A stretch of DNA of 64,000 nucleotides, taken from a virus. Positions 36,942 to 53,157 of this stretch are shown piece after piece. Where the stretch lies: UHGV virus genome UHGV-1493261; one strand, given 5' to 3'. The translations under genes were made by a program, and so were the position numbers. How positions within the stretch are numbered: position 1 is the stretch's first letter; every line of letters begins with the position of its first letter. Below the pieces are notes generated by a model. The model worked only from the letters and a program-made list of their open reading frames with translations, made no database searches and was not told where the DNA came from.

Positions 36942-36960
36942 TCAATCTCCAGCCTGATGC

Positions 36961-36998
36961 TATAATGTGTGGGCGGGGCGTTCCCCGCCTATTTGAAA
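36961..36998 (+). promoter_or_regulatory. Cassette: TATAAT, GC hairpin (GGGCGGGGCG-TT-CCCCGCC), ATTTGAAA
   Basis: One of five similar cassettes placed 15-30 nt upstream of start codons. Confidence 0.4.
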
Positions 36999-37021
36999 TG
37001 ATTCTTCTACACGAGGCTGAA

Positions 37022-38011
37022 ATGTCTAATATCACTATCGTTTCCGACCAGTACGCATGGGAAAACAAGTACCGCCCTGACAACCTGGACGAGATTATCA
37101 TCCCTCAAGACGTCCGCGCTAAAATCCATGGCTACATCACCAGCGGCAACGGCAACATCCCGTCTATGCTGTTCTACTCCCCTCAGCCTGGTACTGGCAA
37201 GACTACCTCTGCTCTGGCCGTGTGTAATGAAATCGGCTGTAAGCAACCACTGATGATCAACGCATCCCTGGACAACAGCATCGACGTTATCCGTGACCGC
37301 GTGATTCAGTACTCTACTGGTGTGAGTGTATTCGGTGGCCGCAAAGTCGTTATTCTCGACGAAGTAGAGCGTCTGTCTATGGCGGCACAGGAGTCGCTGA
37401 AGGGTATTGTGGAGAAAGTCTCCAAGAACTGTTCATTCATCCTGACCACCAACGCCAAGCAACGCGTGAACGAACCTCTGCGCTCTCGTTGCCGTGAAAT
37501 CGACTTTATCTGGAACGAGCAGGAAGCACTGGAAGTTCAGAACAAGTTCTGTTTGCGTTGCGTTGAAATCCTCCGCGCCGAAGGTGTTGAGTTCGTTCCC
37601 CAGGTTCTGGCTGCTATCGTTAAGCGCCATTTCCCCGATAATCGCCGCATTATGGGCACCCTGCAGGATAACGTCACCACCTATGGCAAGATTGACGAAC
37701 GCGCCCTGGCTGTGCTGAAAGCAGGCGATATGGGCACGCTGGTCGGTATGCTGAAGACTGAAGATTGGGCTGGTATGAAGCAATGGGTGACTGACAACCA
37801 GAACTACATCACAGAAGACTTCTATTCTCGCTTCTTCCAATTCTGTGTACCACAGGATAAAGAGAAGCCGACGATGGTTAAGAACGAGTCTATCCCAGAT
37901 CTGGTCTGTGTCTGTGGTCAGTCACAAATCGAACATCGTCAGGTGGGTGATGTGTGGCTTCACGCCGTTTATTTCCTGACCAACGTCATGCTCAACATTA
38001 AGTGGAAGTGA
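37022..38011 (+). CDS. gp44: Clamp loader large subunit (gp44-like AAA+ ATPase)
   Basis: PQPGTGKTT Walker A, VVILDEVE Walker B, SRC motif (PLRSRC); ATG at 37022 is Met20 of track ORF 36965. Confidence 0.9.
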   Translation: MSNITIVSDQYAWENKYRPDNLDEIIIPQDVRAKIHGYITSGNGNIPSMLFYSPQPGTGKTTSALAVCNEIGCKQPLMINASLDNSIDVIRDRVIQYSTGVSVFGGRKVVILDEVERLSMAAQESLKGIVEKVSKNCSFILTTNAKQRVNEPLRSRCREIDFIWNEQEALEVQNKFCLRCVEILRAEGVEFVPQVLAAIVKRHFPDNRRIMGTLQDNVTTYGKIDERALAVLKAGDMGTLVGMLKTEDWAGMKQWVTDNQNYITEDFYSRFFQFCVPQDKEKPTMVKNESIPDLVCVCGQSQIEHRQVGDVWLHAVYFLTNVMLNIKWK

Positions 38012-38015
38012 TACG

Positions 38016-38438
38016 ATGGCCGCTCCTGCACTGTTCGATTTCCGCAACGCGCTCATGGAAACGAAGGAAGATATCCTCCGCACGACTGACCCAGAAGTGT
38101 TGAAGGCATTTGACCCGTTCATGATCCGGCGCTGTTTTGCTCAGAGTAAGGACACACTGGTAACGGCAGAGCAGTTGAATAAACTGCACGCCATCACGCC
38201 ATGGATGCAATGGTCATATGCCTTTTACACCATTCCGGCTCGGAAACGCTACGACAAATGGTCTAAGAAAGGTCCGATTGATCCTGACGTGAAGTTACTC
38301 TCAGAGTACTTCTACATCAGCATGGAGAAGGCATCGGAGTACGTCCGTTTCTTGCCGAAGGAAGTTCTGGCCGAGATACGCGAGAAGATGGGACGTACTG
38401 AGCTGAACGCCAAAGCGAAACCGCGCAAGGCTAAGTAG
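38016..38438 (+). CDS. gp62: Clamp loader small subunit (gp62-like)
   Basis: Position between gp44 and regA as in T4; RKRYDKWSKK resembles T4 gp62 RGKRYGKWAKL. Confidence 0.6.
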   Translation: MAAPALFDFRNALMETKEDILRTTDPEVLKAFDPFMIRRCFAQSKDTLVTAEQLNKLHAITPWMQWSYAFYTIPARKRYDKWSKKGPIDPDVKLLSEYFYISMEKASEYVRFLPKEVLAEIREKMGRTELNAKAKPRKAK

Positions 38439-38467
38439 TTCAAACTATTGTAAAAGGGGAATGAGTC

Positions 38468-38932
38468 ATGGCGCGTAATACGCTAGACATATTGAATATT
38501 TCAGCAGTCAACGATGAGGCCAGCATCGTTGATTGTATGGTTGAAGTTCAATTGAACCAAGATCGGCCAGGTATATTCCTGGGGATCAAGGAAACACTGA
38601 GCCGGATTGGGGTAAACACGCGCCAAGAGCCGAATACTCTGTATCAGACTTGCCATATTCTTCATAAGTGTGGTAAGTATTATATCGTCCACTTTAAGCA
38701 TCTATTTATGCTGGACGGGCATTACAACGGATTTAACCGCGAAGATGTCCTGAGGATGAACCGAATCATCAAGCTGCTGGAGCAGTGGAACATGGTGAAG
38801 GTCATTCATCCCGAGCAGGTCACCGAAGCCGCCGATATGTCACGCATTAAAGTGGTTAAACACGATCAGGTTCCTGAATGGAAGCTGGTCCCAAAATACA
38901 TTATCCGGCCCACAAAGGCCAAAAGCGAATAA
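38468..38932 (+). CDS. regA: Translational repressor RegA-like
   Basis: LYQTCHILHKCGKYYIVHFKHLF and EWKLVPKYIIRP match remembered T4 RegA LYQSCHILQKKGLYYIVHFKEM .. EWKLVPKYTIGN. Confidence 0.8.
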   Translation: MARNTLDILNISAVNDEASIVDCMVEVQLNQDRPGIFLGIKETLSRIGVNTRQEPNTLYQTCHILHKCGKYYIVHFKHLFMLDGHYNGFNREDVLRMNRIIKLLEQWNMVKVIHPEQVTEAADMSRIKVVKHDQVPEWKLVPKYIIRPTKAKSE

Positions 38933-38948
38933 CTGGAGTCTCTAAATC

Positions 38949-39821
38949 ATGACAACTACATTTTCTAAGAACGTGAATCTGAATCTGGCTTTCGGTAATG
39001 CAAAGGGCGACGTCACATCGCCTGACTTTGGTAAGATCCGCAATCAGGCGAAACTGGTGCTGGAAGAGACCCGCGAACTGCTGGAAGCGGCGTTCTTTGA
39101 CCATGATGTGAAGGTGGAATTCACTGCAACTCCACGAGTCCTGAAAGAACCTGTTGTTGTCGACATCAAAGGCATTATGCGCCAGATCATGGATGCCCAT
39201 GGCGACATCACAACAGTCAACGACGGTGTGGCTCATATTGCTGGTTTCGACGGTGACGAATGCCTACAGCGCGTGTATGCCTCTAACATGAGCAAGTTCG
39301 TCCGCAATGAAGGTGAAGTTGTTCCAGCGCTGGAGTATTACTACAACAAAGGCTTCCCACGCGAAAGTCTACGCATCGAAGGGGAATTCCCTCAGGCATG
39401 CATCAAAGTGGTGGACACCATCACCGTCGACGGCAAAGAATACCCGGCTGGCAAGTTCCTGAAGAACATGGCAACCTTCAAAGAGCCTGACTTCTCTGAT
39501 ATGTTGACCACCGAGCCTAAGCGCCAGATCACCGAAATCATTCTGACGGGCACGGCTACCCCAGGTCGACTCAGTTCTAACGAACATGCTGGTGTTGCCT
39601 ACGCGCCGTTCGATTTTATTGACGAGATCGTAGGATACACCAAGATGGGCTTCCAGGCGTTCTCTGGTGAAACAATCGAGAGTTATATTCCTGTGTTTGT
39701 TTTCAATGAAGACAACTTCCCAACTCTGCCGTTGATCTGGGGTGAATGGAAAGCCAACGTTCGTATCTATGTGTCCAGCCCAGTACAATCATCTATCACC
39801 CAACTGACCCGTATCGATTAA
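38949..39821 (+). CDS. Protein with N-terminal MazG-like (all-alpha NTP pyrophosphohydrolase) signature; candidate dNTPase
   Basis: LVLEETRELLEAAF carries the EExxE motif; sits where T4 has the DNA polymerase gene after regA. Remaining about 170 aa unassigned. Confidence 0.4.
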   Translation: MTTTFSKNVNLNLAFGNAKGDVTSPDFGKIRNQAKLVLEETRELLEAAFFDHDVKVEFTATPRVLKEPVVVDIKGIMRQIMDAHGDITTVNDGVAHIAGFDGDECLQRVYASNMSKFVRNEGEVVPALEYYYNKGFPRESLRIEGEFPQACIKVVDTITVDGKEYPAGKFLKNMATFKEPDFSDMLTTEPKRQITEIILTGTATPGRLSSNEHAGVAYAPFDFIDEIVGYTKMGFQAFSGETIESYIPVFVFNEDNFPTLPLIWGEWKANVRIYVSSPVQSSITQLTRID

Positions 39822-39843
39822 GATATACAGTTATTCACTAAAC

Positions 39844-39875
39844 AACAGAGGCTATAATGGCCTCTGTTTTCTTAT
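39844..39875 (+). terminator. Rho-independent terminator
   Basis: AACAGAGGC-TATAATG-GCCTCTGTT followed by TTTTCTT; the track ATG at 39857 lies in the loop. Confidence 0.6.
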
Positions 39876-39889
39876 TCTGTGAGGATACC

Positions 39890-41086
39890 ATGAAAGACAA
39901 AGCCCTGGACGTCCCGTACTGCGGTGTCCGCGAAGAAAAGATAAAGTCGGCCAAACCGGTTCTCAGTCCGACCCATACCCGCCTGTCTTACGAATGGATG
40001 CGCGATCGTTATCAGATCCACGTCAAGAAGGACGTCCAGCGCCTTCCTGCTCCTTGGACTGATAATCCCATATTACGCCAGGTTAAATTCTGTAACGTCC
40101 GGAGAGAGCACGACAGGCAGTCTCTCAACCTGATCAATAACATTGTCAAGAACGATGCTCTGGGCATGGCAGACAAGATGTTCAACTGCGTGTTGTTCCG
40201 CATGTTCAACCTCTGGGATCCGATCCAGGCTATCGGCGGCGCGATGACGATCAAAGAATTCGCCAAGATCAACCTCGATGCAACCCGCGAACGACTTCAG
40301 AAGTTCGAGGCCGACGGCGGTAAAGTATTCACCAATGCCTTCAACACGGGCGGTCTGAAGCAATGCCTGGCTTTCCCTGAGATGGTTGTCAACCACAAGG
40401 AGCAGCGCTTCGGTGGGATGATGGTGAATCTGATCTGTAAAGACGGTTCAACCCAGAACATGGATTATAAAGAAGCCAAGGCGATAGCCGAAGCAGAGCC
40501 GGACTTCTACACCATCGAAGGTTGGGAACCGTACATGCCAATGCGTGTCATCCGCTCCCTGAAGGCATTCGTCAACAAGTATCCAAATTATTTCCATGAC
40601 CTGCTGCGCCTTGATACGCCTTTGGAAGTATACCAGCGCATGTACGACGACATCGAAGGGCTTGGTCCATTCCTGGCCTATCAGATCTGGGTTGATTTCA
40701 CGTACATTCCTGGATATCCTTTCAGTGAGAACCACTTCACGGTTGCTGGACCAGGCTGTCGCGCAGGGATTGATCTTCTGTTCCTGAACAAAGACGGTAT
40801 GACCCACGAAGAATGCATCTTCTGGTTGCGGGACAATCAGGACGCAGTTTATGGTCCTCTTGGGTATAACAGGGAAGAATTTTGGTCTGAGGAAGAGCCT
40901 TGGGATCGCCATTTAAATATAATGGCAGGAGAAAATATGTTTTGTGAACTTCAGAAATATACCCGTTGTGTAGAGGCCATACAGCAAGGTAAAAAACCGC
41001 GCGGGAAGGTTGGATACGATGGGGAAGGACGACCTAAAGCGACGACATCTGGTTCTAAAAACCTACTAAATTTATTTAAAAAGTAA
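39890..41086 (+). CDS. Hypothetical protein (398 aa), enzyme-like
   Basis: ATG with GAGGA Shine-Dalgarno after the terminator; no family recognised. Confidence 0.6.
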   Translation: MKDKALDVPYCGVREEKIKSAKPVLSPTHTRLSYEWMRDRYQIHVKKDVQRLPAPWTDNPILRQVKFCNVRREHDRQSLNLINNIVKNDALGMADKMFNCVLFRMFNLWDPIQAIGGAMTIKEFAKINLDATRERLQKFEADGGKVFTNAFNTGGLKQCLAFPEMVVNHKEQRFGGMMVNLICKDGSTQNMDYKEAKAIAEAEPDFYTIEGWEPYMPMRVIRSLKAFVNKYPNYFHDLLRLDTPLEVYQRMYDDIEGLGPFLAYQIWVDFTYIPGYPFSENHFTVAGPGCRAGIDLLFLNKDGMTHEECIFWLRDNQDAVYGPLGYNREEFWSEEEPWDRHLNIMAGENMFCELQKYTRCVEAIQQGKKPRGKVGYDGEGRPKATTSGSKNLLNLFKK

Positions 41087-41145
41087 CTTACTTTGTGAGT
41101 TAATAAAGTATATTATAACAGGAACTTTCATTTGGAGTTCCTGTT

Positions 41146-42075
41146 ATGTTTTACGAATTATTGATTTCTAAAGGCGGTAAACCGCATTTTATCAAGAAGT
41201 ATTTGAGGATGATTCAATCTTTCAAATATTCTGATGGTGACTACACTGAATTACACCACATCCTTCCCAAGAGCATGTTCCCTGAATATTCTAAAGATAA
41301 GATCAATTTGGCAAGACTTACTGGCAGGCAACATTATCTTGCCCATGTGTGTTTGGCCTTGGCTTTCCCGAATTCTGATATGGTATATGCTGTTATTTTG
41401 ATGAGCCGTGGGGGTAGGTATACACCAACGGGTATAAAATTTAATTCTCACCTTTACGAAAAGTTAAGGAAAGAATTTGGACAAAGAATATCCAAACTCA
41501 CAAAGGGTGTCTCTAAATGCGTCGGGGCAAACAACCCAATGTATGGGAGAAGAGGAAAGAATAATCCCCAATATAGATATAAGAGAACTCCAGAGCAAGT
41601 CAAGAAAATTACCAAAGGATTGATGAAAATCCATGAAAGGATGGCTTCTGATCCTGAATATAAAAGGCGGGTTTTAGAGAAACGCCGCGCCAACATGGAT
41701 TTAGAACAATTTTCTGAACGTGCCAGGAAAGCTAAACTTGGGGAACTTAATCCAAATCATGGCAAAGATATTACCAACACGTTTACCCCTGAACAACGAC
41801 AGAAACAAATAGAAGGTATTAGAAAAGCCCATTTATCAAAAATGCCCTGGGAGAAACCGCGTTGGTCTGATGAAAAGGACATGTATTGGGCGAAAGCTGA
41901 TAAATTCCTTGAAGCAATGAAAACAATGAAAAGAGCGGAAGCCCTCATGCATGTGTACGGAACAAAGGATTTGAAGGCTTTTAATGCGACAAACAGCATT
42001 ATCGAACGTTTCAATAGAGGGTGGGAACCTTTGAAATGTCCTAAATGGACAGAACGATACGGTTCTTCTGAATAA
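41146..42075 (+). CDS. HNH homing endonuclease with NUMOD3-like motifs
   Basis: TELHHILPKSMFPEY .. NLARLTGRQHYLAHV HNH core; NPMYGRRGKNNP and GELNPNHGKD NUMOD3-like; AT-rich coding sequence; hairpin CAGGAACT..AGTTCCTG immediately upstream. Confidence 0.8.
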   Translation: MFYELLISKGGKPHFIKKYLRMIQSFKYSDGDYTELHHILPKSMFPEYSKDKINLARLTGRQHYLAHVCLALAFPNSDMVYAVILMSRGGRYTPTGIKFNSHLYEKLRKEFGQRISKLTKGVSKCVGANNPMYGRRGKNNPQYRYKRTPEQVKKITKGLMKIHERMASDPEYKRRVLEKRRANMDLEQFSERARKAKLGELNPNHGKDITNTFTPEQRQKQIEGIRKAHLSKMPWEKPRWSDEKDMYWAKADKFLEAMKTMKRAEALMHVYGTKDLKAFNATNSIIERFNRGWEPLKCPKWTERYGSSE

Positions 42076-42115
42076 AGATTCCCTTTACTTCGTTCTTCAA
42101 TAACTCAATCCAGCG

Positions 42116-42169
42116 TATATTGACCTCACTTAAACGAAGCGCCCTGGCAAACGGGGCGCACATTTGAAC
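42116..42169 (+). promoter_or_regulatory. Cassette: TATATT, GC hairpin (GCGCCC..GGGCGC), CATTTGAAC
   Basis: Same architecture as the cassette at 36961. Confidence 0.35.
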
Positions 42170-42189
42170 TGAAACAGGAAGATTACATC

Positions 42190-44208
42190 ATGTCAGATTT
42201 TAAGTCCTTCGCAGTAGCTGTCAACAATAACGTGCTGGCCATGTCAGCAACTGGTCTGTTCATGACCAACATCGATAAAGATGCTCTGTGGGATCTGTAT
42301 CTGTCTTCTTTCCCTGCTGGCACTAACCCGCTTTATCGTGAGCGTACCGAGCACGACTGCACCTGCTGTAAACAATTCATCCGTAACATTGGCGGTGTGG
42401 TCACCATCGACTCCGACCTGAACGTGATCTCTATCTGGGATAACATTCAGCTGGGTAACGAATACGACGTTGTCTCTGCGGCGCTGTCAGCGTATGTTAA
42501 GCAGCACGCAATCGTCGACGTGTACTTCAACGACACCAAGAAAGTTGGTGTTGAGTCGAATCACGAAATGAAAGACGGTATTGTCCGCACCTACAACCAC
42601 TTCCACACCGACCTGCTGGGTAGCTATGTTCTGCGGGCAGATACCATCGCTTCTAAGAAGGGTGAAATCCGCCAGGCGATTGAAGTGTTTGAGCGCGGCC
42701 TGCGCGAACTGTCTCTGGAATCGGCTGAAATCGTCCTGGAACTGATCGATCAGAATTCTCTGTATCGCGGTGAAGAGCACAAAGCGGCAGTGCAGGCGTT
42801 CGTGGTGAACAAGACCATGTACGAACAAACTGCAGAAGAGAAACGCGCTCTGTGGGCTTGGCGCACTGGCTACCGTGCAAACGGTCATACCCCTCACGGC
42901 ATTCGTAATACCGTGATTGGCTCTCTGCTGGTAGACCTCAATGAAGGCCGGGATCTGGAAACCGCCGTGAAGTCCTTTGAAGCCAAAGTCGCTCCGACGA
43001 ACTACAAGCGCCCGACTGCGCTGGTGACAAAGTCGATGATCGAAAACGCGCAGAAAGAAGTCGAAGCGCTGGGTCTGACTGATTCGCTGGGTCGCCGTTA
43101 TGCCGTGTATGACGATCTGACCATCAACAACGTTCTGTTCGCCGATCTGGCAGCGCAGAAGAAGATGGACCCGTTTGCTCAACTGGCGTCTGAAGTGAAG
43201 ACTCCGACCAAGTCCCTGGATAAGGTTGAAGAGATCACCATCGACGACTTCCTGGCCAACGTGTTGCCAAAGGCGCATTCCATGGAAGTGCTGGTTGAGA
43301 ACTCTCACATTGGCAACCTGATGTCTCTGATCGCTCCGGCGAACCCAGATGCACCTAACCTGTTCAAGTGGAACAACGGCTTCAGCTGGTCATACAACGG
43401 TGAAGTGGCAGACTCCATCAAAGAGCGCGTGAAGACCGCTGGTGGCAACGTTGACAGCTTCCTCCGTGTGTCACTGGCTTGGCATAACAACGACGACCTG
43501 GATCTGAGCCTGAACGATCCTCTTCACAACCACGTGTACTTCCGCAACCGTCGTTCGTCAACAGGTGCAACCCTGGACATCGATATGAACGGTATGGATG
43601 GCATTGACCCAAATCGCCGTCCGGTGGAGAACATCTTCTTCAGCGATGAACGCAAGCTACGTGACGGGAATTATGAGTTCTATGTCACCAACTACAACAA
43701 GCGTGAAACCTGTGACGTTGGCTTCGAAATCGAAGTCGAATACAAAGGCCAGACCAAGCGCTTCTCACATCCTGGTCTGGGTAACAAAGATCGCACGTTG
43801 GCTGTTGTGGTTCAGGTTCGCGCTGGTCAGGTAGTAGACATCCGTTCCACCCTGAAAGACGACGAACGCTCTCAGGAAATCTGGGGTATCAAGACTGCTA
43901 CCTTCCAGAAAGTACAGCTGGTCCTGAATTCACCAAACCATTGGGACGGCGAGCAGACGGGCAACAAGCACGTGTTCTTCATCCTGGAAGGTTGCGCCAA
44001 CCCTGTGGGCACCCGTGGCTTCTACAACGAATATCTGAAGCCGGAACTGGATAAACACCGCAAGGTTTTTGAAATGTTAGGTGGTAAGATTAAAGTACAG
44101 CCAAGCACTGAGCAGCTGTCCGGTCTGGGCTTCTCTACCACCCAACGCAACCACGTGTTCGTGAAGGTGAGCGGCTCGTTCAACCGCACTGTGAAAGTTG
44201 TGTTCTAA
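42190..44208 (+). CDS. Hypothetical protein (672 aa)
   Basis: Uninterrupted ORF with AGGAAG Shine-Dalgarno; contains HDCTCC and EMKDG motifs but no family recognised. Confidence 0.7.
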   Translation: MSDFKSFAVAVNNNVLAMSATGLFMTNIDKDALWDLYLSSFPAGTNPLYRERTEHDCTCCKQFIRNIGGVVTIDSDLNVISIWDNIQLGNEYDVVSAALSAYVKQHAIVDVYFNDTKKVGVESNHEMKDGIVRTYNHFHTDLLGSYVLRADTIASKKGEIRQAIEVFERGLRELSLESAEIVLELIDQNSLYRGEEHKAAVQAFVVNKTMYEQTAEEKRALWAWRTGYRANGHTPHGIRNTVIGSLLVDLNEGRDLETAVKSFEAKVAPTNYKRPTALVTKSMIENAQKEVEALGLTDSLGRRYAVYDDLTINNVLFADLAAQKKMDPFAQLASEVKTPTKSLDKVEEITIDDFLANVLPKAHSMEVLVENSHIGNLMSLIAPANPDAPNLFKWNNGFSWSYNGEVADSIKERVKTAGGNVDSFLRVSLAWHNNDDLDLSLNDPLHNHVYFRNRRSSTGATLDIDMNGMDGIDPNRRPVENIFFSDERKLRDGNYEFYVTNYNKRETCDVGFEIEVEYKGQTKRFSHPGLGNKDRTLAVVVQVRAGQVVDIRSTLKDDERSQEIWGIKTATFQKVQLVLNSPNHWDGEQTGNKHVFFILEGCANPVGTRGFYNEYLKPELDKHRKVFEMLGGKIKVQPSTEQLSGLGFSTTQRNHVFVKVSGSFNRTVKVVF

Positions 44209-44252
44209 ACCTGATTTGAAATTGTGTCCCATTCATCATTGAGGATAGTAAA

Positions 44253-44624: not shown

Positions 44625-44645
44625 CCCTGTTGGCCTCGGCCTGAG

Positions 44646-44673
44646 CAACCCCGCCATGTGCGGGGTTTCTTTT
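44646..44673 (+). terminator. Rho-independent terminator
   Basis: CCCCGC-CATGT-GCGGGG followed by TTTCTTTT. Confidence 0.6.
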
Positions 44674-44684
44674 GGACAAAGAAT

Positions 44685-45059: not shown

Positions 45060-45067
45060 GATAACAC

Positions 45068-45940
45068 ATGACAAATCGTACTGGCATAAAACTCACTCCT
45101 GAAGTCCTGAAGTCACATATCGCTGAGGTGATTTACGAAGACCGCGAAGTCGGCGGTCACCGGGCTATCACTTGTCATTTCAAGATGGATAACGGCTTCG
45201 TCGTTCACGGCACCAAGCCCAGCACATCCATAGACCCGGCCAACTTCGATGAAGCCCTGGGCAAAGAGATTTCCTACAATAACACCTTCGACCAGCTGTG
45301 GCAGCTGGAGGCGTACCGGGCGCTTGTTGAACAAGATCTGTTGGCCAAAGCCACGGAAACGGCAGAGATACAGATCGATCAATACGCTGTTGAACGTAGC
45401 GCCCTCTGTCCGGCCTATCACCTCGGCTTCAATGTGATGGTTCAGGAAGTGATGTTCAAAGCGGAAAATGGTGAGCGCTTCTTGGCATCTTTCGTTTGTG
45501 GGCCGGATGACATGGAACTTGTTGTTGAATCTCACAACGCCAAATCTCGTAAGGCTGTTAGTGATTTCCTGCGCGCCAACTCCAAACTCGATCTCACTTA
45601 TTCGCCATTGGTTCTGCGCATCGCCAAGATTTGTCATGAAGCCAACCGCGCATACTGCAAGTCTATTGGTGACGACTCTCAACTGCCTTGGGAACAATCT
45701 CCGGCCTGGCAGCGTGAGAGCGCTTGCAAAGGTGTTATCTTCCATCTCACTGGTGATCGTAAGCCCAGCGAATCGCATGAGAGATGGATGGCGGAGAAGG
45801 AGTCTGAGGGATGGGTGTATGGCCCAGTCAAAGACCCTCAGACCAAGCAACACCCTTGCATGGTTCCGTATGGAGAACTCCCGGTACAACAACGCTCCAA
45901 AGATTATATTTTCAAATCCATTGTAGACTCCTTTAAATAA
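45068..45940 (+). CDS. RyR-domain-containing protein
   Basis: C-terminal ESHERWMAEKESEGWVYGPVKDPQTKQHPCMVPYGELPVQQRSKD matches the RyR repeat pattern (W..GW.YG .. K.HP.LVPY.EL). Confidence 0.6.
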   Translation: MTNRTGIKLTPEVLKSHIAEVIYEDREVGGHRAITCHFKMDNGFVVHGTKPSTSIDPANFDEALGKEISYNNTFDQLWQLEAYRALVEQDLLAKATETAEIQIDQYAVERSALCPAYHLGFNVMVQEVMFKAENGERFLASFVCGPDDMELVVESHNAKSRKAVSDFLRANSKLDLTYSPLVLRIAKICHEANRAYCKSIGDDSQLPWEQSPAWQRESACKGVIFHLTGDRKPSESHERWMAEKESEGWVYGPVKDPQTKQHPCMVPYGELPVQQRSKDYIFKSIVDSFK

Positions 45941-45974
45941 GCTCTGAATAATATTTCAACCTGTCAATAATATA

Positions 45975-46006
45975 ATGCCCGGTTATATTCAATCGGGCAT
46001 TTTTAT
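45975..46006 (+). terminator. Rho-independent terminator
   Basis: ATGCCCG-gttatattcaat-CGGGCAT followed by TTTTT. Confidence 0.55.
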
Positions 46007-46014
46007 TATATTAA

Positions 46015-46045
46015 TTGGCATCAATACCGCCTGTCGTAATATAAT
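46015..46045 (+). promoter_or_regulatory. Sigma70-like promoter candidate
   Basis: TTGGCA -35, 16-19 nt spacer, TAATAT/TATAAT -10. Confidence 0.4.
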
Positions 46046-46090
46046 AGTCCCATGTTGAAATAGTTGGGAAATATAACTCACGAGAGCCTG

Positions 46091-46267
46091 ATGACCGACA
46101 ACAAATTAAAACGCGCCGGACTTGATTGTCTTGACAATTCATTCCGCCCCAGTGATGTTCTGGTCGCCCAAATGGAAAACAACCGGGATTTCATTGAAAC
46201 TATGCTGGAGAACGCCGACGCGAACTCCAAACACTCCAAAGCCCAAAAAGGTCAAAACGATGATTGA
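46091..46267 (+). CDS. Small hypothetical protein (58 aa)
   Basis: ATG overlapping the vWA gene start. Confidence 0.35.
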   Translation: MTDNKLKRAGLDCLDNSFRPSDVLVAQMENNRDFIETMLENADANSKHSKAQKGQNDD

Positions 46268-48461
46268 GTCATTAACATTTAAGAATGCGGTTGCGACCGT
46301 CGCGCCGTCTAACCATGTAATCGTTGTGGATATCTCCGGTTCCATGTATCGTTCACTTCCAGAAGTCCGTAAGCATCTGAAGGAGAACCTGCCTTCCCTG
46401 GTGAAACCCGAAGATACTGTGAGCATCCTTTACTTTTCATCTCGCGGTGATTTCGGAACGGTATTTGCCGGACGTCAGATCGGTGTCGCATCTGACCTGA
46501 GCGAGCTGAATAAGCTGATCGACCGTTTCCTGCAACCATCCGGCTGTACTGGTTTTGTTGAGCCATTGAAACTGGCGATGGATACTGCGCGCGGCCTGAA
46601 GAAACCCGGCTACGTCAACAACCTGGCATTCATGACCGATGGTTATGACAACTGCTGGCGCTCCAATGAAATCCTGGATACCGCCGAAAAACTTCCTTCC
46701 GCGTTCGACAACGTTACATTCATCGAATACGGCTGGCACTGTAACCGTGAACTGCTGGCGCAGATGGCCGAACGCTCTGGTGCAACCCACGTTTTCGCCG
46801 AAGGTCAGACTGAATATCAGACCGAGCTGGAAAACGTGCTGAAGTCATCAGTGCCGAAGGTGAAAGTTGATGTCCCAGTCATCTACACCCATGCCATCTA
46901 CGTCGAAAACGGTGTGGCAACAGTACTGGCGGTGCAGGACGATGACGCTCACCCGGTCGGTTATGTGAGCATCCCTGAGAGCGTCACCAAGCTGTGGGTT
47001 GTAAACCCTAACATGATCGACCAGATGGATAGCCTGACGGACATCCAGGCGGCATACGTGCTGGCGTTCTACGGCGTACACACTATGGACGCAGATCTGG
47101 TTTGGGCTGCGCTGAAGAAGACGGGCGACGTTCGCTTCATCAAACAGTACAGCAACTGCTTCACCAAGCAGGACTACTCCAACATCAAGAACGATCTGAC
47201 CCAGGCCATCGTTGATGACCAGCTGCGCGGCGTTGACGGTATTGACTATGACCTGGTTCCAGCTGAAGATGCGACCACCGTCGTTGATGTGCTGACGTAC
47301 CTGGCTGAAGCTGGTGTGCCTGTTGCTACCAAGCATCCGATGTTCTCCTATAAGAGTATCGGGCGCGGTACGGTTCAGAAAACCGACGACACCGAAGACA
47401 AGCTGGCAGAACAGATCGCGAATGCTCAGTCCAAAGAAGAGCGTAAAGCCCTGGCTCTCAAGCTGGCAGAACACGAAGAGTGGAACCCGACGTTCGAACC
47501 TACCAACGACCTGGGTGTTGTGCCAATCAGCGATTTGGTCTATAATTCCGAACGCCCGAACATCAGTGTGCGTACAATTCAACACGGTACTGTGGCTGTG
47601 CCTGAATTCGCACAGAAGAAGTTTGGCCTGCCTGAAGAACTGGATACTTTCCAGTGGCGCAACTACACCATCGTCAAAGATGGTATCATCAACGTGAAGA
47701 CCCTGCCGTTCAAGGCTGATATCGAAGTTGTACAGAAGCTGATCGAAATGGGCGTCCACGTGTTTGGTGGTCCGGAAGTGTTCATCTTGAACCTGGAAAG
47801 CGTACCGCTGGTCAACCGCGCCATGGTCAAGAACATCAGTGCTGCTCAGTTCTTTGCGGATAATGTCCGTCTGGAAGCCCTGAAAGGCAAGCAGAAGGTG
47901 CTGAAGTTCTATCGAGACGCCCTGGTTGGTAAGGGTAACGCCAAAGGCCTGGCAGTACAGTACGGCGCTGAGGCGGCCGAGTTCCTGTCCTCCTATGGCA
48001 TCCGCGATTACGGCTTCTCACCGAAGACTGAGACCAAAGAGTCTACCGACTTCTACATGAGCCGTGAGCTGAACGTGAAGATCGCTGGCGCTTCTTCTCT
48101 ACCGTCTATCGCAGCGGTACAGAAGAAGATAGCCGAGAACAAGAAACTCAATGCTGGTGACTTGTTCATCGCCAATGCGCTGAAGGAGTACGAAGCATTC
48201 GTGAAGTCTCCTATGATCACTGCCGTGCCTGAAGCCTTACAGAAACATCTGATCGAAAACTGGATCGACGCTGCTGCCAAGGCGGCCATCACCGAAGTCC
48301 GTGCTCTGAACAAGACGCTGTCTAAAGTGGTGTATGGTATCGTTGCTGGTCATGGCTGGTTCACCGACCTCGACCTGGAAGAGTCCACCATGGAAGTTGA
48401 AGTGGATGGGGTGAAGTACAAGGTCACTGCCGAACTGGCAGAGAAAGAAATCAAAATCTAA
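46260..48461 (+). CDS. von Willebrand factor A (vWA) domain protein (733 aa)
   Basis: MIDAS motif VIVVDISGSM (DxSxS) near the N-terminus; AAAGG Shine-Dalgarno; long C-terminal region of unknown fold. Confidence 0.7.
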   Translation: MIESLTFKNAVATVAPSNHVIVVDISGSMYRSLPEVRKHLKENLPSLVKPEDTVSILYFSSRGDFGTVFAGRQIGVASDLSELNKLIDRFLQPSGCTGFVEPLKLAMDTARGLKKPGYVNNLAFMTDGYDNCWRSNEILDTAEKLPSAFDNVTFIEYGWHCNRELLAQMAERSGATHVFAEGQTEYQTELENVLKSSVPKVKVDVPVIYTHAIYVENGVATVLAVQDDDAHPVGYVSIPESVTKLWVVNPNMIDQMDSLTDIQAAYVLAFYGVHTMDADLVWAALKKTGDVRFIKQYSNCFTKQDYSNIKNDLTQAIVDDQLRGVDGIDYDLVPAEDATTVVDVLTYLAEAGVPVATKHPMFSYKSIGRGTVQKTDDTEDKLAEQIANAQSKEERKALALKLAEHEEWNPTFEPTNDLGVVPISDLVYNSERPNISVRTIQHGTVAVPEFAQKKFGLPEELDTFQWRNYTIVKDGIINVKTLPFKADIEVVQKLIEMGVHVFGGPEVFILNLESVPLVNRAMVKNISAAQFFADNVRLEALKGKQKVLKFYRDALVGKGNAKGLAVQYGAEAAEFLSSYGIRDYGFSPKTETKESTDFYMSRELNVKIAGASSLPSIAAVQKKIAENKKLNAGDLFIANALKEYEAFVKSPMITAVPEALQKHLIENWIDAAAKAAITEVRALNKTLSKVVYGIVAGHGWFTDLDLEESTMEVEVDGVKYKVTAELAEKEIKI

Positions 48462-48468
48462 TCCAACG

Positions 48469-48490
48469 GGCGGGTTGCCCCGCCTTTCTT
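48469..48490 (+). terminator. Terminator hairpin
   Basis: GGCGGG-TTG-CCCCGCC followed by TTTCTTT. Confidence 0.5.
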
Positions 48491-48503
48491 TGGGAGAAGT
48501 AGC

Positions 48504-48830
48504 ATGAGCAGTAAACCAACATATGTTGAAGTCATGCGTCATCTGGCTCAGTACGCCACTGACAATTTGAACTTAGATGCAGATGAGGTGAAATACCCAG
48601 ACGTCAAGAAAATGATTGACGGCGAAGTTGTCATAGACGATGCGTTGGACAAGTTTGCAGGCCTCCGCACCAAGAAAGATCTGGGTGGTGACGAACTCGA
48701 TACCATCGAAATCGTGATGGACCTGGAAGAAGAGTTCAACGTCGAAATCGACGACGGTTGGCTAGGTAGTAAAGGCGATGACCCGACCATGGGTGAACTC
48801 GCTGAACTCGTGGTTGCCCTGCGCAAATAA
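48504..48830 (+). CDS. Acyl carrier protein-like protein lacking the phosphopantetheine-attachment serine
   Basis: DLGGDELDTIEIVMDLEEEFNVEIDD versus E. coli ACP [26 protein letters not shown]: 19 of 26 identical, with the conserved Ser replaced by Glu (GAA at 48693-48695). GGGAGAAG Shine-Dalgarno. Confidence 0.7.
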   Translation: MSSKPTYVEVMRHLAQYATDNLNLDADEVKYPDVKKMIDGEVVIDDALDKFAGLRTKKDLGGDELDTIEIVMDLEEEFNVEIDDGWLGSKGDDPTMGELAELVVALRK

Positions 48831-48836
48831 CAGAAG

Positions 48837-48862
48837 TCCCCAACAAACGTTGGGGATTTTTA
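48837..48862 (+). terminator. Rho-independent terminator
   Basis: TCCCCAAC-aaac-GTTGGGGA followed by TTTTT. Confidence 0.6.
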
Positions 48863-48872
48863 CTTTTAGGGG

Positions 48873-48902
48873 GTTTACTTCCTCTAAGGAATGTCCTATT
48901 AT
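48873..48902 (+). promoter_or_regulatory. Sigma70-like early promoter candidate
   Basis: GTTTAC -35 (T4 early-like), 18-nt spacer, TATTAT -10. Confidence 0.45.
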
Positions 48903-48953
48903 TCAATAACTGGCGAACGATGGGTTCACCGGGTTGAAAGGTAAGATTATATC

Positions 48954-49193
48954 ATGAAGAACAAAATGGTCGAAACTTCAGTAGAGATTGATCGCAATTG
49001 GGGATTGCTCCGCGCTAAAGGGTTCCGTCGTGTGTATGCGACCAAAGAAGTCTACGCACAGCGCCGTGACGTTATCATCAGCAAGAAAGGCAAAGAGTGG
49101 GTTGCTGAAGAAGTTGATGTCGAGACAGGCATCGTAGGAAAGGTAAAGGCCAAGGCCGTGATCCTCTTCGCTCTTCTGAAGCACATCAGTTAA
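48954..49193 (+). CDS. Hypothetical protein (79 aa)
   Basis: ATG with AAGGTAAGA Shine-Dalgarno. Confidence 0.5.
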   Translation: MKNKMVETSVEIDRNWGLLRAKGFRRVYATKEVYAQRRDVIISKKGKEWVAEEVDVETGIVGKVKAKAVILFALLKHIS

Positions 49194-49196
49194 TTC

Positions 49197-49238
49197 TATA
49201 ACTTTGGGCGGGGTATGATTACCCCGTCTATTTGAAAT
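49197..49238 (+). promoter_or_regulatory. Cassette: TATAAC, hairpin CGGGGTATGATTACCCCG, TATTTGAAAT
   Basis: Hairpin core identical to the copy at 49765-49786. Confidence 0.45.
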
Positions 49239-49252
49239 GCAGGAACTATACC

Positions 49253-49759
49253 ATGACCGATCAACAAATTCAAGATTTATTTTACCTCGTCCATGATAAG
49301 TCCCACATCATGCGCCCCGGTACTGTTTCCCCTGCCGTCCGTGATCTGGTGCAAGAATTGCGCGAACCACAGACGACCACACTTTATCGCGGGTTGCCTA
49401 AAGAGGACGTTGCGCGTTTAGAGATGATGTTTGAACGAGGCGACATGTTCCAGACATGGGATTCTTGCCTTAGCTTCAGTGAACTGAAGCATGTGGCCAA
49501 AAAATTTTCTAAATCGTACGGAACCCAAGCTGTTGCCCGCATTTGTTACAAACATCGAAACAGACTCCCGGAGGGGCTTAATGTCTATGGTTCTCTAGAA
49601 AAATTTGTGAACAAAGGCGATGAATCAGAAATGGATATGCTGGACTTGGCGTCCATGGAGAAAGAATGGATATTCTGCCAGCCTCGCGTCATACCAGTTT
49701 CAAGAAAAATGGCAACAGACGGGACGATGGTTTTTACCGTATCACTTGTTACTCTATAA
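49253..49759 (+). CDS. Hypothetical protein (168 aa), candidate mono-ADP-ribosyltransferase
   Basis: Possible R-S-E triad: YRG, SxS in WDSCLSFSE, ExE in MEKEWIF. Assignment is speculative. Confidence 0.5.
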   Translation: MTDQQIQDLFYLVHDKSHIMRPGTVSPAVRDLVQELREPQTTTLYRGLPKEDVARLEMMFERGDMFQTWDSCLSFSELKHVAKKFSKSYGTQAVARICYKHRNRLPEGLNVYGSLEKFVNKGDESEMDMLDLASMEKEWIFCQPRVIPVSRKMATDGTMVFTVSLVTL

Positions 49760-49796
49760 CCCACGGCGGGGTATGATTACCCCGCCCATTTGAAAC
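49755..49796 (+). promoter_or_regulatory. Cassette: TATAAC, hairpin GGCGGGGTATGATTACCCCGCC, CATTTGAAAC
   Basis: Near-identical repeat of the cassette at 49197. Confidence 0.45.
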
Positions 49797-49810
49797 CAAG
49801 AGACTATATC

Positions 49811-50185
49811 ATGAAAAAGTTAATCCTCGCTGTTGCCCTGCTGGGCGCTTCCTTTGCTGCTGTTTCCGCTCCTCCTGTCATTACCGGGGTGTCTACCAAC
49901 GGTGTTTATGCTTTCAAGGCGTATGGTCAAGACCTCGTTCTGTATAAGAACGGGAAGATGATTGAGCGCTGCGTATCAGAAGACGTGAATCGTGGGATCG
50001 ACAATCAGGGTAGCCCATACGTCCTGGACATCTATGCCTGCTCCAACGGGACGAAGTCCTTTGGTGTCAAGACCTTTGGCAACGTCGCCGTCGGCGGCTG
50101 GGGCTTCATGATCGAAACCCGCAACCACCAACCGGTCAAGACCATGCAAGAAGAGTTCTTGATCTCTGTCGGGGGTACGTTATGA
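49811..50185 (+). CDS. Secreted small protein (Sec signal peptide)
   Basis: MKKLILAVALLGASFAAVSA then a mature domain with two Cys. Confidence 0.6.
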   Translation: MKKLILAVALLGASFAAVSAPPVITGVSTNGVYAFKAYGQDLVLYKNGKMIERCVSEDVNRGIDNQGSPYVLDIYACSNGTKSFGVKTFGNVAVGGWGFMIETRNHQPVKTMQEEFLISVGGTL

Positions 50186-50469
50186 CACCATCAGAGAGAA
50201 GTTCTATCAAGGAGATGATCAGAGACAAGGCGTGTGTTGGCCATACTCAGTCAGAGAACATCTTGCGCCTGATGGTAATAAAGAACGATATCGATAACAG
50301 CCGATTCCAAACAGCGTTGTATGGCATGCTGGAGTTTATATCGCGGTCATCTGATCTTGGCACGGTCCGATATCTTGATGATCTAACCAAGCTGTTGAAC
50401 ACGGGCGGGGAAACTTTCGACACCGCTCGTATCCTGATTGACGGTGGACCTGAAGAAGACGAGGTATAA
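50182..50469 (+). CDS. Hypothetical protein (95 aa)
   Basis: ATGA overlap with the upstream gene. Confidence 0.5.
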   Translation: MTPSERSSIKEMIRDKACVGHTQSENILRLMVIKNDIDNSRFQTALYGMLEFISRSSDLGTVRYLDDLTKLLNTGGETFDTARILIDGGPEEDEV

Positions 50470-50470
50470 T

Positions 50471-50629
50471 TTGGATAAAGAATTGGTTTGGGAAATTGTG
50501 AAGGGTGTCCTAGTGATAATTGCGGTGGTTTTCATCTTGGGTGGGAACTTCTTCTATTGGTTATTCCGATCCGACCAGAAACGTCGCGAACGCAAGGAGA
50601 AAGAGAGAAAGGATCGATGGATGCGCTAA
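50471..50629 (+). CDS. Tiny single-pass membrane protein (TTG start), tentative
   Basis: GAGGT Shine-Dalgarno 5 nt before TTG; VKGVLVIIAVVFILGGNFFYWLF helix then a basic tail. No ATG available. Confidence 0.25.
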   Translation: MDKELVWEIVKGVLVIIAVVFILGGNFFYWLFRSDQKRRERKEKERKDRWMR

Positions 50630-50661
50630 CTAAGGGATAACCCTATATCCCGAGGTGTGTC

Positions 50662-51111
50662 ATGTTCCTTACATCCTTTATTGACTGGTTGAACATCATT
50701 AACGGCCTGAGGATCCCTGTTGGGAACCTCGGGCTTTCTCGTTCTTCTATGCCGCAAATCGATGCCGACAAACAAGAAGATTTTCACAAATATCTTGAAG
50801 ACAACGGCGTGTCCATAGATGCTGCGCAAGTGCCCATCAAAATGCTTCGTCTTACCCAGAACGAAATCAACAAGATGAAGGTCTGGAAGATTATGAAGCA
50901 GATCAGAAATAAGAAACCTATGGGTCGAGTTTGGGTGTCTTCTGACAATTACGTTGTTGACGGTTCTCACCGATTTGTCGCTGCGTTGAACATGGACGGC
51001 AAACAGCGCATGAAGGTCTACAAAGTTGATTTACCAGCGATGGAATTTGTTAAACTCGCTAAACAGTTTCAGGGTGTGCGATACAGAACGGTCAGCGATA
51101 CCCGTTTCTGA
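50662..51111 (+). CDS. ParB/Srx-fold (ParB-like nuclease domain) protein
   Basis: VVDGSHRFVAAL matches the ParB N-terminal DGxHR motif; GAGGTG Shine-Dalgarno. Confidence 0.55.
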   Translation: MFLTSFIDWLNIINGLRIPVGNLGLSRSSMPQIDADKQEDFHKYLEDNGVSIDAAQVPIKMLRLTQNEINKMKVWKIMKQIRNKKPMGRVWVSSDNYVVDGSHRFVAALNMDGKQRMKVYKVDLPAMEFVKLAKQFQGVRYRTVSDTRF

Positions 51112-51190
51112 ATACGATAGTTTATTGAATCCCTTTACTCATCATGGTGAGCCGCCTATCATTTCATCCAATGAAATAAGGAGAATCACC

Positions 51191-51877
51191 ATGAAACGTT
51201 TAATCCTCGGGGTTGTGCTGGCTGGTCTGGCATTACCCGCCGCTGCCAAGCTGAACTCCACAGGTGATAAACTGTGGTCCGACCTTTCCTATTGTGCTGG
51301 GTTCTCCCAGGCGGTTGCTATCGACAAGTCTGGTTCCATAGAGAACTTCGCTGAACTCTGGAACACAGGCAACGTCTCCACCGCTGTCATCAATGCCGGA
51401 ATTGAGTTCAACCGTTACAAACAGGGAGCCTATAACCTCAAGGGCTACCTCAATGACGACGAATTTAACCGTGGAGGCATGGAGGCTGGCGATTTGATCA
51501 TGACTGGGCGTATGGGCACCCAAGGCCGAATGACCGTAAGACAGTGCCGTTCGCTCCCTTCTCCGGCATTACAGAAGGGTGTGCAGATAGGCCGCCGTCA
51601 CCTGAACCTCATCAACGATGGCAACCAGTGCATCAAAGTATTCGAATACAGCGCTACGCAGACCTCTGATCGCGTCCTGAAGAAGGAATGGCGCACTCGC
51701 GCTCTCGGTCTCAGAGCCTGGCTGGTTGAGAACGATTATTACTTTGAAGACAGGGTTCAGAACGGTCTGAAAGACCTGGCCACGAATCTGAGCGTGAACC
51801 TTGATGATCCTCGCATGTCGCGCGAACTCCAGCAGACTCGTGTTGACTGCGACAATATGATGAAGGAGAACGAGTGA
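51191..51877 (+). CDS. Secreted protein (228 aa, Sec signal peptide)
   Basis: MKRLILGVVLAGLALPAAA; AGGAG Shine-Dalgarno; internal ATG of track ORF 51026. Confidence 0.6.
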   Translation: MKRLILGVVLAGLALPAAAKLNSTGDKLWSDLSYCAGFSQAVAIDKSGSIENFAELWNTGNVSTAVINAGIEFNRYKQGAYNLKGYLNDDEFNRGGMEAGDLIMTGRMGTQGRMTVRQCRSLPSPALQKGVQIGRRHLNLINDGNQCIKVFEYSATQTSDRVLKKEWRTRALGLRAWLVENDYYFEDRVQNGLKDLATNLSVNLDDPRMSRELQQTRVDCDNMMKENE

Positions 51878-52203
51878 TGAAATGTAAAATCCTGCTCTTG
51901 TTGGTACTGATAGCCGGGTGTGTAAACGCCGCGCCACCGTCCAAACTGAACACATGTGTGGCATGGATGGAGACGTATCAGCAGTTCCACCCAGATGACA
52001 AAGATACATCTATCCTCTTGTCTGACTTCGAGGGAGAGCTGAAGCGCCTTGATCTGTTCAGTGTTGATCAGATAGAGAATGCGCTGGATCTTCCCATGAT
52101 GCTGACTGCGGCTGACAACAGTTCACAAACGAAGAAAGACCTGATGTATTGCCGGGGGATTGCCCAGGACTTTGTCGGATTTCAAAATAAAGTTTCGGGT
52201 TAA
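51877..52203 (+). CDS. Lipoprotein (108 aa)
   Basis: MKCKILLLLVLIAGC with lipobox LIAGC; GAAGGAGAA Shine-Dalgarno; several mature-domain Cys. Confidence 0.6.
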   Translation: MKCKILLLLVLIAGCVNAAPPSKLNTCVAWMETYQQFHPDDKDTSILLSDFEGELKRLDLFSVDQIENALDLPMMLTAADNSSQTKKDLMYCRGIAQDFVGFQNKVSG

Positions 52204-52243
52204 AATTTTAGCTCTACATTGTGAACTGAAGGAATACACTGTG

Positions 52244-53110
52244 ATGCTCCTGACCAAAACAATCGCTGCAGCGATTATCGAAAAGAATAAGGCTTTTGCC
52301 CCCAACGCAGCCAAAGTTATGTTGGTACACGAAGACGCTCGCGTGATCTTCGCCGAGAAGTTCGAGATGGGCGCGAAGTTCTGGTATGCCGACAACTTAC
52401 GTGAGAGCAAACTTCAGGGTATCATCCACAAACTGACTCTGGTCGCCAAGCGTAATGACCAGGGTGACTGGGTCGGCGTTTCTGACTTCAGTACGAAGAT
52501 CACCCCAAAGGCTCCACTTTCTCGTCAAGAGCGCATTCTGGAAGCCCAGGAAAAGCTGCGTGCGGCTCGGAGTACCCCAAAGGCGAAACCAGATGCAAGC
52601 CCTGTCATCAAGCCAGCGGTTGTTCCTAAGTCCAAATACCTCCCGCCCGTGAGTCAAAAGGCTGTGGAGCAATTGGTTGAGAAGCGCAAGGGTGACGTTG
52701 TGATGAAGTCTGACTCTTCAGTGGAGCCGTTCAAGCCGGATCCAGCAGAAGTACAGGCGCTGGCAGAAAAGGTAAAGAATTCACAATTCATTTCCCTGCG
52801 TGAACTTGAACCGCCTACTCGCCGTCGTATCGCCAACGAGCTGTTTGTGTCGTTCAGGTCGGATGGCAAGATCGTCCTGTGCAAAGCCCTGCGCGATGCA
52901 ATCCCTTGGACAACTCTGAACATGATGGTCACTCGCGACTTCAAGCGTTTTGGTATCATGCAAGGCAAGGACTACAACGTGAACCAGAGTGGGACTTATG
53001 TTAATCGCGCCATGTGTGACAAACTGACCTTCCCAGAAGATACTGGAACGATCCGTGTCGTTCTGAATTGGGACGACAAGCTGAACATGTATGTTGGCGA
53101 TTTCCAATAA
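52244..53110 (+). CDS. Hypothetical protein (288 aa) with a basic Pro/Lys-rich linker
   Basis: ATG with GAAGGAA Shine-Dalgarno (track ORF 52160). Confidence 0.55.
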   Translation: MLLTKTIAAAIIEKNKAFAPNAAKVMLVHEDARVIFAEKFEMGAKFWYADNLRESKLQGIIHKLTLVAKRNDQGDWVGVSDFSTKITPKAPLSRQERILEAQEKLRAARSTPKAKPDASPVIKPAVVPKSKYLPPVSQKAVEQLVEKRKGDVVMKSDSSVEPFKPDPAEVQALAEKVKNSQFISLRELEPPTRRRIANELFVSFRSDGKIVLCKALRDAIPWTTLNMMVTRDFKRFGIMQGKDYNVNQSGTYVNRAMCDKLTFPEDTGTIRVVLNWDDKLNMYVGDFQ

Positions 53111-53121
53111 TCAATAACCTC

Positions 53122-53157
53122 GGGCGGCTTATCATAAAGCTGCCCTTTCATTTGAGT
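53122..53157 (+). promoter_or_regulatory. Cassette: GC hairpin (GGGCGGCTT..AAGCTGCCC), CATTTGAG
   Basis: Same architecture as the cassettes at 36961, 42116, 49197 and 49755. Confidence 0.3.

Follow-up and report, generated by a model that had tools for sequence, protein, structure and literature searches.

What kind of signal is repeated ahead of at least five genes in the virus genome UHGV-1493261? The stretch analyzed here, which we call the window, is 64,000 nucleotides of this genome. In it a GC-rich hairpin, the motif YATTTGAR and a start codon follow one another at five sites, S1 to S5, which the original prediction likened to the promoter-early stem-loop (PeSL) cassettes of T4-type phages. 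We conclude that the five sites are probably copies of one composite control cassette of the Ackermannviridae, in which a putative promoter, a putative terminator or attenuator and a leader are combined in a manner analogous to the PeSLs.

The window is from an Agtrevirus-like, ViI-like phage of the Ackermannviridae. Positions 30000-55000 are 92-97% identical to the Aglimvirinae (Ackermannviridae) phages AV101, ZQ1, fGh-Ecl02, A221 and SKML-39, and share ~80% identity with Kuttervirus phages, CBA120 among them. S1 is located between the genes for the gp45 sliding clamp and the gp44 clamp loader, S2 lies upstream of the open reading frame (ORF) of a conserved 672-aa protein, and S3-S5 are found among small hypothetical genes.

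Anatomy of the cassettes

Direct reading revealed the same order at all five sites: a GC-rich hairpin, YATTTGAR 1-5 nt past the stem, and ATG. Each cassette is located between the stop codon of the upstream gene and the Shine-Dalgarno sequence (SD) and ATG of the downstream gene, as is required of a PeSL, and every gene at S1-S5 is carried on the + strand. The five downstream start codons agree with the annotated coding sequence lengths in phage AV101.

The hairpin-YATTTGAR pattern is real. ATTTGA occurs 46 times on the two strands of the window, and the five copies that follow a hairpin of <= -16 kcal/mol are exactly those of S1-S5, all on the coding strand. Given the 84 hairpins found there, chance would yield 0.18 such coincidences (Poisson P = 1.4e-6), and the maximum reached in 20,000 random placements was 4. 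As a free-standing motif YATTTGAR is not enriched in the window (16 found, 11 expected), whereas the hairpin-linked copies are, and the signal thus lies in their coupling to a hairpin. The stems are best on the sense strand, since the minus-strand hairpin list includes only those of S1 and S4 and the S3 stem has two G.U pairs, which points to a role at the RNA level. Rfam gave no family match at gathering score anywhere in the window.

All five cassettes are on the + strand. S1 (36941-37024) begins at the gp45 stop codon (TAA, 36939-36941) and ends at gp44. It carries a degenerate box, ATCAATCT (36941-36948), a 12-nt spacer and TGcTATAAT with the -10 at 36961-36966, followed by the hairpin GGCGGGG-cgtt-CCCCGCC (36972-36989), ATTTGAAA (36991-36998), the SD GAGG (37013-37016) and ATG at 37022. 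S2 (42084-42192), upstream of the 672-aa ORF, is made up of TTTACT (42084-42089), the box TTCAATAA (42096-42103), the -10 TATATT (42116-42121), the hairpin GCGCCC-tggcaaac-GGGGCGC (42139-42159), ATTTGAAC (42162-42169), the SD AGGAAG from 42176 and ATG at 42190. S3 (49194-49255) has the box TTCTATAA (49194-49201), the hairpin with two G.U pairs (49206-49229) with a -10-like TATGAT in its loop (49214-49219), ATTTGAAA (49230-49237), the SD AGGAA, ACTATACC and ATG at 49253. In S4 (49752-49813) the box CTCTATAA (49752-49759) includes the stop codon of the upstream gene (TAA, 49757-49759). It is followed by the hairpin GGCGGGG-TATGATTA-CCCCGCC (49765-49786), which has a -10-like TATGAT in the loop (49772-49777), then by ATTTGAAA (49788-49795), the SD GAGA, ACTATATC and ATG at 49811. 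The box of S5 (53110-53169), ATCAATAA (53110-53117), likewise overlaps a stop codon (TAA, 53108-53110). The hairpin GGGCGGC-TTATCATAAA-GCTGCCC (53122-53145) carries a -10-like TATCAT in its loop (53130-53135) and is followed by TTTC, ATTTGAG (53150-53156; the GAG is probably the SD), ACTATATC and ATG at 53167. As had been noted from the sequence, S3 and S4 share an identical 18-nt hairpin core, CGGGGTATGATTACCCCG, at 49209-49226 and 49767-49784.

At S3-S5 the hairpin surrounds the -10. In the other two cassettes it lies downstream, directly past the -10 at S1 and 17 nt away at S2. The arrangement originally proposed for the five genes stands as far as the hairpin, YATTTGAR and ATG are concerned. 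Its other part, a hexamer just before the stem, applies to S1 only, where TATAAT immediately precedes the stem; the TATATT of S2 is 17 nt upstream. The TATAAC or AATAAC that had been taken for the -10 at S3-S5 proved to be the 3' part of boxes resembling TTCAATAA (TTCTATAA, CTCTATAA and ATCAATAA), the -10-like hexamer of these sites being in the loop. The gap between YATTTGAR and ATG, given as 15-20 nt, is 9-23 nt across S1-S5.

The cassette consists of four modules: a bipartite promoter-like motif, a GC-rich stem-loop, YATTTGAR (a short U-run plus GAA), and a shared leader and ribosome site of the form (T)TTGAAM-N2-4-AGGAACTATAYC-ATG. A stable stem-loop built of a G-run and a C-run, at a variable position relative to the promoter, is a further feature of PeSLs that was found at all of S1-S5. 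No inverted partner of TTTGAAA was seen upstream of the stem when S1-S5 and the S1 orthologues were read.

The bipartite motif and its conservation

A k-mer screen of co-directional intergenic regions in Shigella phage AG3 detected TTCAATA in 17 regions (0.94 expected) and TTCAATAA in 12 (0.29 expected). When the AG3 hits were read in context, the box TTCAATAA was located 12 bp upstream of a TAnnnT hexamer. We scanned for the box with <=1 mismatch, a spacer of N11-13 and TAnnnT, using shuffled sequence as the background. AG3 has 29 matches versus 3.6 +/- 2.1 in the shuffles (~8-fold), and 17 of them are in sense intergenic DNA. In the window there are 8 matches versus 1.8; seven are sense intergenic, with S2, S3 and S5 among them, and S4 was recovered only when 2 box mismatches were allowed. 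The histogram of spacer lengths has a sharp peak at 12 (11 of 44 boxes).

The motif box-N12-TAnnnT is the published signature of these phages, TTCAAT[N14]TATAAT, which has been quoted as a "unique regulatory motif" of the group (PMC7283392). Each of S1-S5 fits it. S2 matches it in full save for one base of the -10 (TATATT). S3, S5 and three further sites, at 28657, 39834 and 45963, match it at equal spacing with <=1 box mismatch plus TAnnnT. A strong GC hairpin holds the hexamer at its apex in 6 of 8 intergenic copies in the window (<=2 box mismatches), namely 28657, 39834, 45963 and S3-S5, and at least nine copies in AG3 are embedded in hairpins likewise.

The cassette is conserved across the sampled genera, with compensatory changes in the stems. 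For S1 we sampled 21 IMG/VR loci around gp44. The orthologues keep TAnnnT (TATAAT, TATTAT or TAATAT) and TTTGA(A), and the sequence downstream drifts. (T/A)TCAAT-N14/15-TAnnnT is kept in three of four lineage groups, the loci L019 and L020 having TATAAT without the box. The S1 box has 3 mismatches in the window and 0-1 in Kuttervirus and the L015 group; the number is 2 at S4 and <=1 at S2, S3 and S5. The S1 stems vary by lineage (GGCGGGG, GCAGGGGC or GGGCGG), and each folds at -14 to -19 kcal/mol. These values are from per-sequence folds, which were used because RNAalifold returned no structure for the S1 orthologues, MAFFT having misaligned stems of unequal length. S2 orthologues keep TATWTT-GACCTCAC..-stem-(N)ATTTGAACTGAAACAGGAAG, with stem changes from GC to AU and from CG to UG. 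In three genera S5 keeps box-N12-TAnnnT, with the hexamer in the loop (TATCAT, TATTAT or TATAAT), plus ATTTGA, on three different stems. The hairpin at 39844 retains its TATAAT loop in L019 despite an altered stem.

The spacer upstream of gp44 has a different form in two Limestonevirus-like loci (L002 and L003), in which the leader past the S1 hairpin and ATTTGAAA is a different sequence of ~45 nt ending in AAACTATATCATGGGAATTCATAATG. L002 is without the hairpin altogether. This lineage thus has a remodelled gp45-gp44 spacer.

The three further cassettes are also on the + strand. The one at 28657-28690 has the box TTCAATAA (28657-28664) and a hairpin ACGGGG...CCCCGT (28664-28690) with TATTAT in the loop (28677-28682). 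The one at 39834-39868, which was absent from the earlier list, has the box TTCACTAA (39834-39841) and a hairpin AACAGAGGC-TATAAT-GGCCTCTGTT (39844-39868) with TATAAT (39853-39858) at the apex and an ordinary T-rich tail (TTCTTATTC). The one at 45963-46001 has the box GTCAATAA (45963-45970), a hairpin AATGCCCGG...CGGGCATT (45974-46001) with TATATT in the loop (45984-45989), and a T-rich tail.

Other promoter-like signals were noted in the same sequences. A second class, TTTACTTCTTCAATAA-N6-TATAMT, has the box TTCAATAA 6 bp from the -10 and TTTACT as its -35. It occurs in the window at 18487-18580 and 29654-29760 and on the minus strand of AG3 at ~64896, 79813, 100541 and 144196, and is often followed by a repeated leader of ~50 nt, TCATTCCATAAGCAGTACGACAC...TTGAAA..AGGAACTATATCATG. 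A GGGG/CCCC stem at 29662-29690 surrounds both the -35 and the box of this class. Another sequence, CTAAATAC, is present in 5 copies versus 1.15 expected, all on the + strand (window 642, 12205, 24334, 30806 and 34003). It agrees with the second published group motif, CTAAATAcCcc, which is considered to be the late promoter of these phages. The sequence GGGGTATAATTACCCC, with TATAAT in the loop of a GGGG/CCCC stem, is also found in unrelated IMG/VR viral contigs (L068, L069, L072, L075 and others). The L069 copy lies within a perfect TTGACA-17-TATAAT, suggesting that -10 elements wrapped in hairpins are widespread in phages.

Gene exchange at S3 and S4

Repeated copies of the cassette mark points of gene gain and loss among related phages. 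S3 and S4 flank a variable gene of 168 aa (49253-49759, + strand) that is not found in AG3, PC3 and several others. Its match to phrog_832 ("RNA polymerase ADP-ribosylase", E = 6e-15) is weak and partial, and Pfam returned nothing for it. AG3 and PC3 have a single cassette in place of S3, the gene and S4. The cassette of PC3 is that of S3 up to ATTTGAAA and that of S4 beyond, which places the crossover inside the repeat. The S3 and S4 repeats are spaced 558 bp apart, and several relatives are ~560 bp shorter at this locus.

In other relatives the slot of the 168-aa gene is taken by a 151-aa ORF (MTRINVIP..), by a 92-aa ORF or by nothing. Among Ackermannviridae contigs in IMG/VR at least four unrelated ORFs follow the same cassette (MKKLIL.., MTDQQIQ.., MTDQRSI.. 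and MTRINVIP..), and the downstream ORFs include a lipoprotein-like one (MKKLIL..) as well as the 168-aa gene, the 92-aa ORF and the 151-aa ORF. The last of these (MTRINVIPVESLCDQHLLAEY...) we take to resemble T4 endonuclease V. Recombinant junctions thus fall inside the cassette, some of the right-hand ones within the common leader ..GAGACTATATCATG. The second cassette copy in the contigs L076 and L077, after the 168-aa gene, has an unchanged stem and the loop TAATCATA, the reverse complement of TATGATTA in S4. An extra gene of 225 bp upstream of S2 in AV101 has no bounding cassettes. Shuffling, which the original prediction had proposed to look for by comparing flanks in related phages, is evident in the chimera of PC3, the single copy of AG3 and the alternative downstream genes, at least four in number.

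Pfam gave no match for the four genes after S2-S5, nor for the 79-aa gene that precedes S3. Elsewhere in the window, in the structural gene region, segments 18465-20825 and 26642-28655 are without a counterpart in AG3, and their boundaries adjoin GC hairpins at 18447-18468, 26659-26682 and 28664-28690.

Proposed function of the cassettes and competing explanations

We propose that transcripts entering a cassette and transcripts starting in it would have different fates. RNA from the upstream gene would include the entire hairpin and the short U-run, and so could be terminated, attenuated or left with a protective 3' hairpin. A polymerase that starts at the cassette's own -10 would begin ~7 nt downstream, at predicted starts G36973, A42128, G49226, G49784 and G53142. 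At S3-S5 the predicted start is inside the 3' arm, so that the cassette's own transcripts would be without the hairpin and would run into the next gene. The own transcripts of S1 and S2 would carry the hairpin at or near their 5' ends, where the weak U-run would permit passage. Because ~40-60 bp of the cassette are repeated, the copies may also act as homology patches, and phage recombination between them would add, remove or swap single genes.

A number of observations weigh against this interpretation. On the promoter side, the S1 box in the window is degenerate (5/8) and L019 and L020 lack it, and the inverted loop of L076 and L077 removes the sense-strand TAnnnT, showing that the loop hexamer is not always kept. 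A scan for the sigma-70 -35/-10 consensus between 36 and 56 kb found 25 sites versus 20.7 expected, none of them at S1-S5. The distance from the box to the -10, 14 bp as hexamer, is too short for a sigma-70 -35, suggesting that host polymerase alone may not use these sites. On the terminator side, S5 is the only one of the five to pass a standard terminator scan. The U-runs are short. The tail scores of S1-S4 are 0.55-2.3, most other hairpins in the window scoring about 2-3.6, and come from a home-made approximation of the d'Aubenton-Carafa score that is not calibrated as a terminator predictor; termination may be weak at these U-runs. A U-tract also does not fully explain the conservation of ATTTGAA. 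Finally, literature searches found no transcriptome and no mapping of transcription starts, terminators or transcript ends in the Ackermannviridae. According to the founding genome papers, no early or middle promoters had been identified in ViI-like phages (PMC3184105, PMC3121705), and promoters are not mentioned in a 2024 review of the family.

Could S1-S5 simply be factor-independent terminators or attenuators between co-directional genes, with the hexamers and boxes being incidental products of stop-codon neighborhoods or shared descent? The hairpins orthologous to S1, S2, S4 and S5 appear among the rho-independent terminators in Table S2 of the AG3 paper (PMC3121705), where they are named Torf165, Torf160, Torf138 and Torf131 and their tails read ...tattt or ...cattt. 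The stem of an intrinsic terminator (>=5 GC-rich bp, a loop of 3-10 nt, on the transcribed strand after a stop codon) is present at all of S1-S5. The stems are all sense-strand and GC-rich, at -15 to -18 kcal/mol, with G.U pairs and a T-run after them; S5 passes the terminator scan, and two relatives have second-copy hairpins whose inverted loop leaves no sense -10. We nonetheless consider this explanation unlikely. The box-N12-TAnnnT motif is ~8-fold enriched, specific to strand and intergenic position, and sharply peaked in its spacing, and at S1 and S5 several genera preserve TAnnnT and its spacing despite altered stems, loops and flanks. At S2 and S4 the U-run is poor, with 3 T in the 8 nt past the stem and no U in the first two positions; S1 and S3 have 4 T, and S5 reaches the >=5 T of a terminator U-tract. 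Unlike the terminators annotated in AG3, the hairpins have interrupted U-runs (YAUUUGA) and overlap the promoter-like motif.

The geometry of the motif suggests a second possibility. T4 middle promoters, as defined for MotA/AsiA-dependent transcription (Hinton 2010, PMC2988021), have an upstream box that replaces the -35 at 12 +/- 1 bp from a sigma-70-type -10, TAnnnT. The same geometry is found here, and the motif precedes replication-type genes as it does in T4, raising the possibility of a further activator. By analogy, TTCAATAA boxes 12 +/- 1 bp from TAnnnT might form a middle-type promoter class used by host polymerase with a candidate Ackermannviridae activator taking over from the -35 contact, as MotA/AsiA do in T4. 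The -10 in a hairpin loop would serve as a device by which upstream transcripts are halted and new ones start free of the hairpin, and AUUUGAA would be the first bases of the new leader or a processing site in it. We offer this proposal tentatively and think it doubtful as a whole. The box differs from the MotA box, (a/t)(a/t)(a/t)TGCTTtA, and ViI-like phages are reported to be without MotA and AsiA homologues (PMC3184105).

A third explanation is that the hairpin and AUUUGA form an RNase E-type processing site that cuts polycistronic RNA, leaving a protective 3' hairpin upstream and a new 5' end downstream. ATTTGA keeps close to the 3' foot of the stem (1-5 nt), while its distance varies to ATG (9-23 nt) and to the predicted start (4-35 nt), and the sampled genera retain (A)TTTGA at S1, S2 and S5 while the flanks drift. 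AUUUG is present in the classical RNase E sites of RNA I and 9S RNA, and intercistronic processing by RNase E is known in T4. The T4-derived consensus, RAUUW, has a purine before AUU, whereas the base before AUUU is C or U at five of five sites here. Kuttervirus S1 has CUUUGAAA without the A, and TTGAAM is also found in leaders without any hairpin. A processing site, which along with a repressor-binding site was the alternative offered in the original prediction, seems improbable to us, and in the favored composite cassette we read ATTTGAA as the beginning of the leader joined to a weak U-run.

The least probable explanation, which we would hardly credit, makes ATTTGAAA...AGGAACTATAYC-AUG a translational operator or enhancer common to the sites, perhaps serving a RegA-type repressor, with the hairpin only insulating it. 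In its favor, (T)TTGAAM-N2-4-AGGAACTATATC-ATG precedes ~15 genes of AG3 and the window, some behind hairpins and some not, ACTATAYCATG (<=1 mismatch) has 8 copies versus 1.6 expected, a RegA homologue is present at 38468-38932 (Pfam PF01818, E = 2e-34) and S1 is upstream of gene 44, a classical RegA target in T4. Against it, S1 is without the CTATATC module and has a gap of 23 nt, and cassette duplication alone could account for the recurrence of the leader. The start context (A/T)CTATAYC-ATG was observed directly before start codons at 18570, 28945, 29835, 48946, 49245, 49803 and 53159 of the window; it could be a candidate RegA operator, or could have been copied along with the cassettes.

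The closest parallel to the composite cassette is the PeSL, known from the T4-type phages RB49/phi1, T4/PST and KVP40/nt-1 (Arbiol et al. 2010, PMC2839356; Comeau et al. 2014, PMC4122927). Both are compact composite elements set between a stop codon and the SD and ATG of the following gene. In both a promoter or promoter-like motif is joined to a GGGG...CCCC stem-loop at a variable place (over the -10, after it, or between the boxes), and PeSL subclasses vary in this position likewise (PMC2839356). Both are repeated in regions of small genes without assigned function, flank genes that are present in some relatives and absent from others, and have junctions inside the cassette. The resemblance first proposed therefore holds for architecture and for shuffling, as in the PC3 chimera and the swapped genes, of which there are at least four. 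It does not extend to the promoter, which is TTCAATAA-N12-TAnnnT in place of the consensus sigma-70 -35/-10 and AT-rich UP region of the PeSLs. At S1-S5 there is no -35 at 16-18 bp from TAnnnT, as the strong sigma-70 promoter of a PeSL would have, and reading of S1-S5 and the S1 orthologues found no TTGAAA placed as a -35 with a downstream -10. Canonical sigma-70 early promoters at S1-S5 were rejected on the basis of the consensus scan described above. The cassettes also belong to a different family, and one copy is in the conserved replication core (gp45/gp44) and not only in plastic regions.

The individual elements are already in the literature, as AG3 terminators and as the signature motif. 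The papers that quote the signature, a set that does not cover the original genus paper, give the string in the passages concerned and do not describe there its embedding in hairpins or its link to shuffling. The fusion of these elements, and their role as recombination linkers in the Ackermannviridae, look new, though of a familiar type. If the motif is habitually fused with hairpins, it would set concrete boundaries of transcription units in ViI-like phages, which are widely proposed for biocontrol and diagnostics, and would provide a mechanism for swaps of accessory genes such as the ADP-ribosyltransferase-like and endonuclease V-like genes. It would also extend the PeSL idea past the T4-like subfamily in which it was first described.

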